Positions 8,300 to 16,268 of a stretch of 64,000 nt of DNA are shown here, piece after piece. The position numbers were made by a program, and so were the translations under genes. How positions within the stretch are numbered: position 1 is the stretch's first letter; each line of letters opens with the position of its first letter. The DNA is from Klebsiella phage vB_KpM_FBKp24. The DNA is taken from the sequence record MW394391.1, one strand, 5' to 3'. The notes under the pieces are model-generated. The model was not told where the DNA came from and searched no databases. It saw only the letters and a program-made list of their open reading frames with translations.

Positions 8300-8989
8300 T
8301 CATTTATTGGTTTTGGTGATATACCATTTCCAAAGACCGTAGAACGCGTTCATCAAGAACACCGCCCATTGCGCAACCTGCGCCCATGAACCCGGTTGAT
8401 TAAGCGCCGGGATCACCCACAGATAAATCGTGACGCAGTTGATAATGATCCAGAGAATCCATTGCTCTGGCTGCTGCTTGATCATCATCCACATGGCGAT
8501 GAGCGATGCGACTAAGCAGAATGCGTCTAAGGCAGGAAACGGATCCTGCGTCGTTTTCAGGTATTCGGTCAGGCCATACCAGAAGATAACCCCAACAACC
8601 AGATATGTTATCACGTCACGTAAAGTGATCGTTTTAACCGCTACGTCAGCTTTGGCTGGAGTTTTGCCCAGGTCTTTCGTCCAGTAATAAATACCGATAA
8701 ACTGCATGGGAAGGTAAATAGCGTTCAACGCCGCATTCGCGTAGAGTCCGGTATTGTACGAAACAATACCGTAGGTAATTACACCAACGGTTCCCCAGTA
8801 GTAATTGGAGACACGACCTTTCGCTACCAGAATAACGCAGATCACGTTAGTCAGCGCCGCCGTAAATTCAAGTGGGCTGGCGCTCCAGCTACCAGCGCCC
8901 ACTAAGATCAACGCAATGATCAGCCAAAGGTATTCGACTTTCTTCCAGTGCGCAAAGTCAGTGAACGTTTTCAATACAAGTGTATTCAT
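8300..8989 (-). CDS. pnuC: nicotinamide riboside transporter PnuC
   Basis: 229 aa polytopic membrane protein; C-terminal WILWIIINCVTIYLWV... and overall layout match recalled E. coli PnuC. Confidence 0.8.
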   Translation of the reverse strand: MNTLVLKTFTDFAHWKKVEYLWLIIALILVGAGSWSASPLEFTAALTNVICVILVAKGRVSNYYWGTVGVITYGIVSYNTGLYANAALNAIYLPMQFIGIYYWTKDLGKTPAKADVAVKTITLRDVITYLVVGVIFWYGLTEYLKTTQDPFPALDAFCLVASLIAMWMMIKQQPEQWILWIIINCVTIYLWVIPALNQPGSWAQVAQWAVFLMNAFYGLWKWYITKTNK

Positions 8990-9151: not shown

Positions 9152-10366
9152 TCAATCAGAAGACTTATGGTGACAGCGATCTTCGACACTATCTACCATC
9201 GCCTGAATCAAAGTAGTAATCGATCCGTCAGAAGGCGCGGTTTGGAACTTACCGGGCTCATCTTTCCGTACTGCGTCCCACCCCAGGAACCCTTCGTTAA
9301 ATGCCAGTAATTGATCTACGGCCGCACGGGCTTGATCTAAACGGCCTTTGTACGAGTCGCCAGTAATAAATACCGTACGCCCCCGAGGAGTTTGGTTTTT
9401 AAACTCCAGGAGCATTTGTTGGAATAACCCGTCAGTTTTCTCTCGATCCGGATTTAAACGCAAGCCGTCATCGACCCACGGGACTTCAGGAGACAGTATC
9501 AGAACGAGGTCGTAGTGTTCTTCGGCTGCGATGGCGGAGACGATAGGGTTAGGTTTACCTTCGTACAGACGATGGTAATACTCCGTGACGAAAGCGTTAG
9601 TATCGACGAAACAAAGTCGATTAGAGGTTCGTAACGCTTCCTCCTCCAACTCTTTGTGACGATACGCAATCAACGGGTAGTCAGAACTACGCAGTGTTAA
9701 CTCAGAGCCCGCTAAGACGGTTTCACAGTACGTACGGCCGTACTCTTCTACCCAGCTGGTGTTGTAGAGTTTAGCGAGGTTCTTGACGAGATTTGATTTA
9801 CCCGCGCTCTCGACACCCATGACGACAACCCGCAGACAATAGTCCTTACGGACAATACTGGGGAGATATTCCCAGTTGGCGTAAAGGTTATCACGTACTT
9901 TAGTGGCCGAGATAGGAACACGAGTACGTTCACTGTCAACGATGACGTGCTCAACAAAACCGAGGTGAGTTTTGTATTTCTCATCGTAATCCAGTTCGCT
10001 ACTGAAGATTGCGATAGATTGAGCTTGGCTGTGTTTAGCAGCCAGTTTCCCGGCCTCGCTGAAAATCTTTGCCCCTAATAAAGCGGCGTATTCCTGCCAG
10101 CCGTTAGGATATTCCGGCACCGAAGCTTCGTCGATGAAATCGATCGTAACGTGTTCGGTATCGGCGTAGGTTTGTTGCAACCAGCGCAGACGGTTTTTGA
10201 AGTTCAACACCTGCTGATCGCGGGGAGATTGTTTGTCCAACCAACGTTGGTCGTGAGATAATACCACGAGGACGTGTTTCGATTGGACAGCAGCTTCTGT
10301 AATTAGGTTGATGTGCCCCAAAGTCAGGGGTGCAAACTTACCGATGACGACGCCTAAATCAAACAT
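9152..10366 (-). CDS. nadR: NadR-like bifunctional NMN adenylyltransferase / ribosylnicotinamide kinase (no HTH domain)
   Basis: GKFAPLTLGH (H/T)xGH nucleotidyltransferase motif at residue 9; RLRWLQQTY; WEYLP...VVVMGVESAGKSNLV Walker A of RNK domain; collinear with recalled E. coli NadR residues ~60-410. Confidence 0.85.
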   Translation of the reverse strand: MFDLGVVIGKFAPLTLGHINLITEAAVQSKHVLVVLSHDQRWLDKQSPRDQQVLNFKNRLRWLQQTYADTEHVTIDFIDEASVPEYPNGWQEYAALLGAKIFSEAGKLAAKHSQAQSIAIFSSELDYDEKYKTHLGFVEHVIVDSERTRVPISATKVRDNLYANWEYLPSIVRKDYCLRVVVMGVESAGKSNLVKNLAKLYNTSWVEEYGRTYCETVLAGSELTLRSSDYPLIAYRHKELEEEALRTSNRLCFVDTNAFVTEYYHRLYEGKPNPIVSAIAAEEHYDLVLILSPEVPWVDDGLRLNPDREKTDGLFQQMLLEFKNQTPRGRTVFITGDSYKGRLDQARAAVDQLLAFNEGFLGWDAVRKDEPGKFQTAPSDGSITTLIQAMVDSVEDRCHHKSSD

Positions 10367-12314: not shown

Positions 12315-12347
12315 ATTACACCTCCGGTATTTAAGAAATAAAATAAA

Positions 12348-12375
12348 GAGAGGGAGGGAATTTTCCCTCCCTCTC
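12348..12375 (-). terminator. terminator hairpin gagagggaggg-loop-ccctccctctc
   Basis: 11-bp stem directly after stop of 12379..13014, T/A-rich trailing sequence. Confidence 0.55.
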
Positions 12376-12378
12376 CGG

Positions 12379-13014
12379 TCAGTATAAGTTTTCTGAGTAC
12401 AACTCGTCGTTAATGATAACAACATCGGGGCGCGTTGCGTTAATCTGCCCAGCGTGTTTCGCGATGATAAAGGCGTCTTCGCGATTCCAATAACGATCCC
12501 ATTGGTCGATAAAGCCTTGTCCTTCACCGTGCGGGAATTTAATCTCCGGTTCACCTGCTAGTTTCCGCAGACGCTTTATTTCGTCACCGATAAGGTGTTG
12601 AAGATTACTACCGTGGCGAGCGGAAGGGATAACGAGTTTTTCAACAGGTTTCATTCCACGTCCTTCCTGTAGAACTTCCCGCGTATTTACCTCACCCCAG
12701 ACATTAGCGGCAGAGACAATCCGAACCTGAACAAAAACCCCGGGTGAAGGTTCATGGACGCAGATCGCAGGAAGAGCAGATCTTTGTTCTTCCGATAGTA
12801 CCTCATTACCAGAATAACCTTTCTCTTTACGGAAATGAGATTCCGCAGTCTGTACTGAGGCTAGAATATCCTTTGCGAACGCTCGCGCTTCTTCGATGGT
12901 ATAATCCCGACCGTTCAGAAGCCCGCCAACATTAATGACTTTGTCCTCTTCAGTATCGTAATCGCGTACCGTTACTGAAGAGTAATCTCCCCGATGAGAA
13001 AGGTGAATGGTCAT
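12379..13014 (-). CDS. hypothetical protein (211 aa)
   Basis: ORF track. Confidence 0.5.
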   Translation of the reverse strand: MTIHLSHRGDYSSVTVRDYDTEEDKVINVGGLLNGRDYTIEEARAFAKDILASVQTAESHFRKEKGYSGNEVLSEEQRSALPAICVHEPSPGVFVQVRIVSAANVWGEVNTREVLQEGRGMKPVEKLVIPSARHGSNLQHLIGDEIKRLRKLAGEPEIKFPHGEGQGFIDQWDRYWNREDAFIIAKHAGQINATRPDVVIINDELYSENLY

Positions 13015-13304
13015 TTTTTATTTACCTCGCGGGTCAGTTGCCGAAAACTGAGTCTTTGCCCCAGTTTGATCGTACGGATGGGGAGTTCGATCGAACCGCA
13101 GGCGTTAGCCACAATCGTTCCCGTTGGTGTCCCTACGACCGCGGTGAACTCATCGGGTTCTTTTTCGATTAAGTTAGATGCGGCCAAAAAGAGTGCGTCA
13201 TTGCTCGCCATCAGGCGCAATTCGGACTCATTAATGATATCGCCGATATACGGATATTTTGTGTCCCCAATCGGCTGAGTTTTACTGACCTTTTTAGCGA
13301 TCAT
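13011..13304 (-). CDS. hypothetical protein (97 aa)
   Basis: ORF track; ATGA overlaps on both sides. Confidence 0.5.
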   Translation of the reverse strand: MIAKKVSKTQPIGDTKYPYIGDIINESELRLMASNDALFLAASNLIEKEPDEFTAVVGTPTGTIVANACGSIELPIRTIKLGQRLSFRQLTREVNKK

Positions 13305-13735
13305 TCTTTACCTCCGTCAATGACAGAGAACGGATTGGCTTTTTTCATCGGGGTAACGTTGTCCGTCGAAGTTACTGGATCAACTTCTTCTTTCCCTGTG
13401 ATCACAGGGTACGGCAGCGCTAAATTCTGGTCGCTGGTATCCGGGTTGAGGACAACGCGTACTTTATCCCATGAAAAGGTGTCGCTGGCTAATTTACCGC
13501 CGAATCGACCCTCGAAAAACAACCCTTCATCAAAAGATTGTAGCTGGCAGGAATGCGGAGAAATGTTGAGTACTAAATACTCGTACCCCTCGACGTCGGG
13601 TGTGGGTTTAATAAAGCTCCGTAAAATGGGGTTAGTACTGATACATTTACCATTAAGGGCAATAAAAATTCGGTTCCCTTGATCACAGTGCCATTTATAA
13701 GCTGCGTCGAAAAGTGCTTTGTTCAGTGAGGACAT
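13301..13735 (-). CDS. SspB-like protein (ClpXP adaptor substrate-binding domain homolog) lacking C-terminal ClpX-binding tail
   Basis: AAGGAG RBS; LVLNISPHS...EGRFGG...SVIDGGKE aligns with recalled E. coli SspB IVLNIAPRA...NARFGG...SVIDGDK; protein ends right after SVIDGG, no ...LRVVK tail. Confidence 0.5.
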   Translation of the reverse strand: MSSLNKALFDAAYKWHCDQGNRIFIALNGKCISTNPILRSFIKPTPDVEGYEYLVLNISPHSCQLQSFDEGLFFEGRFGGKLASDTFSWDKVRVVLNPDTSDQNLALPYPVITGKEEVDPVTSTDNVTPMKKANPFSVIDGGKE

Positions 13736-13759
13736 TTGATTCTCCTTGGATTGGTTTCA

Positions 13760-14251
13760 TTAGGGTGATATAGTCTTCAAAATGCTTCGAGTTTCTTCCC
13801 AGAATTGGACTAACCATTCCCCACTCTTAGGCGTCACTACTTTGACGTTGTCTTCCCAAACCCTCGCGCCCTTCTCCATTCGCCAGTCCCCAAAAACGTA
13901 GTAGTGCGTAAAGGGTAATTCTGACGCAATAAGCGCGTTGTATTGGTGGCGGTAAGCGTTGAGTTTTGCGAGATTGGCAGATTTAATAATCGAGAGAAAA
14001 TCTGGGTGCTGAATAATCTCTAATTTCTTACCGAACGCTTTGGCTTCATTCCCCCACAATCCGCGAAGGTATTGATGTTTGAAGCCTGTTTTCGCGTAGT
14101 ACCAAAACCCCTCCATACTTTCAAAGTTTCCGTATTCGGGATGCTCAAATGGCGTGCGAGGAAAATGCGAAAGAAAGAAGCCCAGTCGGTTCTTTGACTT
14201 GGAATAAATGTTGATGTGGTCGATGCCATCATTGTTTGGGTCGAAAGTCAT
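13760..14251 (-). CDS. NADAR/YbiA-like (DUF1768) domain protein
   Basis: INIYSKS...FLSHFP...FESMEGFWYYAKTGF vs recalled YbiA INFYSTS...FSNFA...TSEHYFQAQKF; start moved to ATG 14251 (AAGGTGG RBS) from ORF-track 14275. Confidence 0.45.
   Translation of the reverse strand: MTFDPNNDGIDHINIYSKSKNRLGFFLSHFPRTPFEHPEYGNFESMEGFWYYAKTGFKHQYLRGLWGNEAKAFGKKLEIIQHPDFLSIIKSANLAKLNAYRHQYNALIASELPFTHYYVFGDWRMEKGARVWEDNVKVVTPKSGEWLVQFWEETRSILKTISP
13764..13783 (-). promoter_or_regulatory. candidate early-type promoter motif (coding strand TTTTGAAGACTATATCACCC) just upstream of sspB-like gene
   Basis: third instance of CTATATCAC motif, ~25 nt upstream of ATG 13735. Confidence 0.35.
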
Positions 14252-14507
14252 CAGGTGCCACCTTATTGTACGCATAAGTTTTACGGAGGATATACTTTCT
14301 CATCGGTCCCCAATAATTATTTTCGATGCGATAGATTAAGTGTAATTGTTTGATGTTATAATCGAACCACCTCTCCGCTGTATCAAGAAATAAAAGAATA
14401 GGAGACATTAATTTACGCGCTTTAATAATTTTTCTTTTACTTGTCCACGTGACTTTAACCAAGACCTGGCTCAATAATGCATTCAAATCACTGTTGTCTA
14501 TCGCCAT
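14229..14507 (-). CDS. hypothetical basic protein (92 aa)
   Basis: ORF track; 3' end overlaps NADAR start by ~22 nt. Confidence 0.35.
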   Translation of the reverse strand: MAIDNSDLNALLSQVLVKVTWTSKRKIIKARKLMSPILLFLDTAERWFDYNIKQLHLIYRIENNYWGPMRKYILRKTYAYNKVAPDDFRPKQ

Positions 14508-16244: not shown

Positions 16245-16268
16245 GGGAGAGGGAATTACCCCTCTCCC
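16245..16268 (-). terminator. terminator hairpin gggagaggg-aatta-ccctctccc after tailspike gene A
   Basis: 9-bp GC stem; separates tailspike block from dut. Confidence 0.55.

Follow-up and report, generated by a model that had tools for sequence, protein, structure and literature searches.

The stretch analysed here, 64,000 nucleotides of Klebsiella phage vB_KpM_FBKp24 (record MW394391.1) and called the window below, carries on its minus strand a gene of 144 codons whose product is, judged from profile and structure comparisons, a divergent member of the SspB family of ClpXP adaptors. An earlier note on this DNA had read the product as an SspB core that terminates right after SVIDGG, lacks the ClpX-tethering tail and might act as a decoy. 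We find instead that the protein keeps the full three-part SspB layout, with a folded domain, a variable disordered linker and a conserved terminal peptide. As far as sequence can tell, the gene is a divergent SspB relative of a kind already annotated in phages and not a tail-less decoy. That it encodes a complete SspB-type adaptor of a ~300-kb Klebsiella jumbo phage, docking on ClpX through its tail, is an interpretation to which we would give roughly even chances. The gene and its parts are located as follows.

13301..13735 (stop codon 13301-13303), minus strand: coding sequence for a 144-residue SspB-family protein, from the list of open reading frames (ORFs), the sequence and homology.
13742..13747, minus strand: Shine-Dalgarno sequence AAGGAG, 6 nt 5' of the ATG of the SspB-like gene, from reading of the sequence.
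13400..13735, minus strand: predicted SspB-type substrate-binding domain, residues 1-112, from an AlphaFold2 (AF2) model, Foldseek, hhalign and conserved columns.
13337..13399, minus strand: variable disordered linker, residues 113-133 (~21 residues), from the AF2 model and comparison of homologues.
13304..13336, minus strand: C-terminal peptide NPFSVIDGGKE, residues 134-144, with an F-S-V-I core like that of the ClpX-binding (XB) peptide and a GGKE extension; the candidate ClpX N-domain-binding tail peptide of the protein is KKANPFSVIDGGKE.
13310..13315, minus strand: GGAGGT, the codons of G141-G142, doubling as the Shine-Dalgarno sequence of the downstream 97-residue gene.

The ORF list and the sequence agree on the reading frame and its ATG start, as the earlier note had given them, and the motifs LVLNISP, GRFGG and SVIDGG that it quoted are all present in the protein. 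An antisense ORF of 120 residues at 13320..13682 was unsupported and was judged spurious. A hypothetical protein encoded by Klebsiella phage vB_KpM_Centimanus (299.7 kb) matches the protein at 97-98% identity, and across the region of the SspB-like gene the DNA of that phage is 97% identical to the window. Further relatives of the window are the ~300-kb Klebsiella phages KpLz-2_45, MJ359 and LPKP23, with the Serratia Moabitevirus group more distant.

Searches with the single sequence yielded little, and family profiles were needed to place the protein. Taken alone, it gave one match in the PHROG database, to PHROG 8945 ('SspB-like', E=0.0095), and only a chance match when phmmer was run against the PDB. 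When a profile of 12 homologues was searched against the PDB, the top nine matches were all SspB chains, headed by 8et3_Y (E=3.7e-5) and followed by 1ox8, 1ox9, 1yfn, 1ou8 and others, and five of the 12 family members matched PF04386 individually. An hhalign comparison of 17 sequences of the phage family with 18 bacterial SspBs aligned 106 columns with a probability of 99.7% (E=9.1e-27). The AF2 model, in which the predicted local distance difference test score (pLDDT) is 85-94 across residues 1-110 and stays above 85 as far as residue 112, consists of an N-terminal helix (residues 4-19) followed by a beta sandwich; Foldseek returned 13 SspB structures as its top matches in the PDB, all with probability 1.0 and template modelling (TM) scores, normalised to the target, of 0.62-0.73, and ranked the Caulobacter and Agrobacterium SspB orthologues after them. 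By these comparisons the resemblance to SspB is far above chance at the level of the family, and the likeness to the SspB substrate-binding domain first noticed in the sequence is upheld by the family profile, by PF04386, by hhalign and by Foldseek alike.

Conserved columns were taken from an alignment of 163 sequences that included 143 diverse SspB-family representatives. The 19 domain columns with the strongest conservation include 13 at which the window protein is identical (L8, A11, Y13, W15, L56, N57, I58, S59, P60, F74, R77, F78 and G80); its changes at the others are Q/N, L/V, S/A, G/A, S/P and one more. According to a preprint describing the delivery complex by cryo-electron microscopy, strong conservation in SspB is limited to the dimer interface and the groove that binds the ssrA tag (bioRxiv 10.1101/2022.11.06.515074). 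Together with this report, the retention of the hallmark positions argues for a working peptide-binding dimer.

Beyond the domain the protein has the architecture of an SspB. In the AF2 model pLDDT falls below 50 from residue 115 through residue 144. The linker ranges from 15 to 41 residues among homologues, with pairwise identities of 0.18 overall and 0.08 between clades, and is followed by a nearly invariant 11-residue peptide, NPFSVIxGGKE, so that the claim of a missing tail does not hold. N134, P135, F136, S137, V138, I139, G141, G142, K143 and E144 are invariant or nearly so among homologues, and these last 11 residues are the best-conserved segment of the whole protein: between the Klebsiella-type and Moabite-type clades, identity is 0.91 in the tail, 0.28 in the domain and 0.08 in the linker. 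In two independent MAFFT alignments the phage tail coincides with the XB motif at the end of bacterial SspBs, a motif for which we used a consensus of about [RK]P.L[KRST]V[VI]K; it is aligned with SHLKVVK, HLTVIK and E. coli RPALRVVK, and the second alignment places P135, V138, I139 and D140 on P159, V163, V164 and K165 of E. coli SspB. The SVIDGDK of E. coli, with which SVIDGG had originally been equated, is an internal island of the linker and not the terminal motif.

The last codons of the gene, GGA GGT AAA GAA TGA, encode GGKE and the stop, and GAATGA provides an ATGA start/stop overlap with the next gene; similar overlaps are seen in Moabite, Totoro, P0090 and MJ359. We considered whether GGKE could be a mere by-product of the Shine-Dalgarno/ATG overlap of that gene. 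The overlap does exist in the DNA of the window (GGAGGTAAAGAATGA), but we rejected it as the only cause. The glycine codons of the homologues vary synonymously (GGC GGA, GGC GGG, GGC GGC and GGT GGT), and GGK is retained even when what comes next is a separate ribosome-binding site, a terminator or a gene on the opposite strand, from which we conclude that selection acts on the protein.

How this tail relates to those of other SspBs was surveyed in 161 family members, drawn from an exhaustive profile search (554 matches, E<=1e-3). Canonical XB-like ends were found in 80 of the 161, an XB-like core with another short extension in 20, phi-x-phi-phi at the C-terminus in nine, and the form phi-x-phi-phi-x-GG[KRL] in 31; 17 were of the alpha-proteobacterial type or other, and four had nothing recognisable. 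Never internal, the GGK-form motif always stands five residues or fewer from the C-terminus, and none of the 31 sequences showed a second copy of GGK type. This suggests that the GGK motif replaces XB. An intermediate is provided by P0090, which ends KPKLTVVKGGKE, a canonical XB followed by GGKE. Orthologues at the same position tell a similar story: P0016, in a syntenic contig, ends PRPSLKVVH, and P0022, in a syntenic contig of 144 kb, ends KANPFTVVK, the order at these loci being two DUF7941 genes, dUTPase, small genes, the SspB-like gene and T4_Y16D. Canonical XB ends also close other phage SspBs, namely RAY gp39 (KKPTLTVVK), pf16 (KKPTLRVVK), Xoo-sp14 (GKPTLMVVK), NCTB (KKPTLSVVK) and that of phage FLC4-3B.

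The GGK form is found in a bacterial SspB as well. P0101 ends RPKFTLITGGKNEENE, and its gene lies on a bacterial contig directly after rplM, rpsI and an sspA-like glutathione S-transferase (GST) gene; the tail of this SspB of an sspA-sspB operon is RPKFTLITGGK. Because P0101 sits in an rplM-rpsI-sspA-sspB operon, it indicates that a bona fide bacterial SspB can have the GGK tail as its only conserved C-terminal peptide. Among the GGK-tail contexts inspected, P0090, P0031, P0094, P0077 and P0100 are in phage-like contigs and P0101 alone is clearly chromosomal, and the extension may be commoner in SspBs carried by phages. A cluster look-up of the GGK-tail proteins gave no informative protein name.

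Several observations weigh against the interpretation of the protein as a complete, ClpX-docking adaptor. The expected match to an SspB profile, obtained with the family, fails for the window protein alone, which has no match in Pfam even at E<=10. The assignment of the conserved columns to the dimer interface and groove is based on the preprint (bioRxiv 10.1101/2022.11.06.515074) and not on coordinates. Scored with a position matrix derived from 76 canonical XB tails, the window protein does have its best 8-mer in the tail (ANPFSVID), but at only -0.2 bits, compared with 8.7-24.5 for canonical tails; this score is not significant, since shuffling the protein 5000 times gave 2051 sequences that do as well. 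The Moabite-type tail scores 6.0 bits and that of P0101 9.4. Relative to the XB consensus the tail has F for L, S for K/R and D for the terminal K, and no basic residue stands directly before its proline. Finally, FSVIDGGK resembles the internal island MSVIDGDKPD, which reportedly is not enough for tethering E. coli SspB when the last residues of that protein are missing. As a candidate XB peptide, then, NPFSVIDGGKE is terminal, highly conserved and aligned on XB, but its matrix score is weak, and the case for XB homology accordingly rests on position, conservation, intermediates and orthology and not on the motif score. From these we infer that the tail is an XB-like peptide that would bind ClpX.

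The internal island deserves separate description, since the linker of E. coli SspB contains MSVIDGDK and the family hidden Markov model (HMM) also aligns the phage tail there. It was surveyed at the sspB loci of 80 Enterobacteriaceae genomes (L018-L097), which yielded 72 distinct C-terminal halves; the genome scan returned Enterobacteriaceae only. The island, ETVMS[VIL]I[DE]GDKPD (about residues 125-139 of E. coli SspB), is essentially invariant across the 72 variants, while its flanks differ in length and sequence. The true XB, RGGRP[AS]LRVVK, follows some 28 residues later, and the island scores -10 to -24 bits in the XB matrix, far below the phage tail. The other diverse SspB representatives that were examined showed no such motif, and the island thus appears to be lineage-specific. 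We know of no function assigned to it.

If the phage protein is a complete adaptor, its domain would dimerise through the N-terminal helix and bind a short unstructured peptide in its groove. The default candidate for this ligand is the host's ssrA tag, which transfer-messenger RNA (tmRNA) adds to mark proteins for degradation; a degron like that of RseA, or one specified by the phage, is another possibility. With F-S-V-I docked on host ClpX, bound proteins would then be tethered to ClpXP and degraded. The XB peptide binds ClpX's zinc-binding domain at any place in a polypeptide (PMC12373786). [quoted passage not shown] At the docking site the phage protein would also be a competitor of host SspB, of RssB and of N-domain-dependent substrates, and such competition would redirect ClpXP capacity during infection.

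The same tail evidence would also fit a protein selected for blocking the ClpX N-domain and not for delivering substrates, its tail occupying the zinc-binding domain in competition with other ligands and so shielding N-domain-dependent substrates, such as phage proteins of the lambda O or MuA type, or stabilising host regulators, sigma-S for one. [quoted passage not shown] The data fit delivery and blocking alike; a blocker, however, would need no substrate-binding domain, yet the conserved groove positions are kept across the phage family, and we consider this explanation unlikely. A functional decoy is a further alternative, in which the domain binds ssrA-like tags, the diverged tail no longer docks and tagged proteins are sequestered from ClpXP. 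Since the tail is present but scores poorly as XB, such an outcome would stem from a diverged tail and not from an absent one, the tail-less core on which the earlier note had founded its possible decoy; the terminal peptide is there, in the XB position, and no other segment of the protein is as well conserved. The score of -0.2 bits, which does not beat shuffled sequences, the resemblance of the S-V-I-D-G-x-K residues to the Enterobacteriaceae island rather than to LRVVK, and the very weak binding to ClpX of SspB dimers that lack the tail (bioRxiv 10.1101/2022.11.06.515074) are all in keeping with a decoy. A tail without function, on the other hand, would not outdo every other segment in conservation (0.91 compared with 0.28 for the domain), nor would GGK survive in it while its codons change synonymously; moreover, the orthologues at syntenic loci have canonical XB-like ends, and the bacterial SspB of the sspAB operon has only this type of tail. 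A decoy thus seems quite improbable.

It is similarly improbable that phi-x-V-I-x-GGK is a separate motif, kin to MSVIDGDKPD, that binds another site on ClpX, a host factor or a phage protein. The conservation of GGK beyond the XB core in 31 members, mostly from phage-like contigs, would be explained by such a partner, as would the invariance of the island among 72 distinct C-terminal halves with variable flanks and the alignment of the phage tail to it by the HMM. But the strictly near-terminal position of GGK and the lack of a second copy in the same sequences suggest replacement of XB, the island is lineage-specific, no candidate partner was identified and the gene immediately downstream is not conserved. 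The bolder form of this proposal, that phi-x-V-I-x-GGK is a distinct docking peptide mimicking the island and not a sloppy XB, strikes us as very unlikely. Were it true, SspB would interact at a second site that has so far gone unrecognised, located on ClpX or on another factor, and these jumbo phages would use this site to take over or jam adaptor-mediated proteolysis.

The surroundings of the gene are shared in part with its relatives. On the minus strand the order is dUTPase, four small genes, a YbiA-like gene, the SspB-like gene, a 97-residue gene and a T4_Y16D-like gene, a block flanked at both ends by strong terminator-like hairpins whose stems are alike (GGGAGGG/CCCTCCC). The features concerned are listed below.

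12347..12376, minus strand: strong intrinsic-terminator-like hairpin of 13 pairs, closing the gene block.
12379..13014, minus strand: 211-residue gene, T4_Y16D-like, phrog_839, the conserved downstream neighbour.
13011..13304, minus strand: 97-residue downstream gene, phrog_36327, its start overlapping the stop codon of the SspB-like gene.
13760..14275, minus strand: 171-residue gene, the conserved upstream neighbour, 53% identical to Moabite gp214.
16245..16268, minus strand: terminator-like hairpin upstream of the dUTPase gene, at the start of the block.

The 171-residue neighbour matches phrog_652 and nothing in a Pfam scan; Moabite gp214 is annotated as an N-glycosidase, YbiA-like by HHpred in that record. 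Homologues of the 211-residue T4_Y16D-like gene in L006 and L012 carry PF26092, and BLAST ties the gene to Moabite gp217. The overlapping 97-residue gene has homologues in MJ359 and L012; a comparison with the neighbouring genes in Moabite and L006 yielded none, and because it is not conserved there we rejected it as an obligate partner of the SspB-like protein. For 10 neighbours scanned against PHROG and Pfam, the matches were confined to families whose function is unknown and to a small 'protease'/lipoprotein-like PHROG some 5 kb away. No tmRNA or tRNA that could supply a phage-specific tag was found within the window, and no Clp or Lon genes are annotated in the first 50 kb of MJ359. A few kb downstream of the SspB-like gene, synteny with Centimanus points to a putative NadR-like ORF of 404 residues (9152..10366, minus strand) and a putative PnuC-like ORF of 229 residues (8300..8989, minus strand), which would be nicotinamide adenine dinucleotide (NAD) salvage genes; a 157-residue gene that lies between the Centimanus pair (L003, 9370-11732) is apparently absent from the window.

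MJ359 (L100, 44273-45241) is annotated with a PhuZ-like tubulin, and its phage group may therefore form a phage nucleus. If it does, a cytoplasmic SspB-like protein would be kept apart from the phage DNA, as reported for RAY gp039.

The window gene opens no new category. SspB homologues are found again and again among jumbo and T4-like phages that infect Erwinia, Serratia, Klebsiella, Ralstonia, Xanthomonas and Pseudomonas, and direct homologues or orthologues in MJ359, Moabite and Kodama are already labelled SspB-like in GenBank, where that of Xoo-sp14 is also annotated. What is new, and of modest interest, is a well-defined tail variant, F-S-V-I-x-GGKE. The tails of the syntenic orthologues, RPSLKVVH and NPFTVVK, are natural controls for it and would make a simple binding and degradation experiment informative.

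The closest known counterparts of the protein are the SspBs of E. coli and H. influenzae (PF04386; PDB 1OX8, 1OX9, 1OU8, 1OU9 and 8ET3), with which it shares the predicted fold, the three-part layout and the L8, A11, Y13, W15, LNISP and F..RF.G positions, at 16-18% identity to the solved structures. It differs from them in its shorter linker (~21 residues, compared with ~45 in E. coli) and in its tail, where, relative to RGGRPALRVVK, NPFSVIDGGKE has F for L, S for R/K and D for the terminal K, with GGKE added; it is also phage-encoded and lies outside any sspA-sspB operon. Caulobacter SspB-alpha (PDB 2QAS and 2QAZ) is a more distant orthologue of the same fold (Foldseek E about 1e-2), and it shows that divergent tails, such as ends of the VVSL..FRKK type, are tolerated in the family. 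By its model, the window protein appears structurally nearer to the gamma-proteobacterial SspB than to that of the alpha group, nor does its tail belong to the alpha type. Phages modulate other host proteases of the AAA+ class (ATPases associated with diverse cellular activities): Gp53 of the Bacillus phage SPO1 acts on ClpC, and T4 PinA and T7 Gp4.5 act on Lon. These share with the proposed adaptor the concept of redirecting or inhibiting a host ATP-dependent protease, but their folds are unrelated, and neither homology to SspB nor an action on ClpXP is known for them.

[quoted passage not shown] We found no functional study of phage SspB homologues in the literature. Like the phage of the window, pf16 and RAY are large lytic phages with an SspB-family gene annotated by homology, and neither pf16 (PMC5587285) nor the window has a phage tmRNA near this gene. 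They part at the C-terminus: pf16, RAY, Xoo-sp14, NCTB and FLC4-3B keep XB ends such as KKPTL[TRS]VVK, whereas the window gene and its Moabite-type relatives carry F-S-V-I-x-GGKE.

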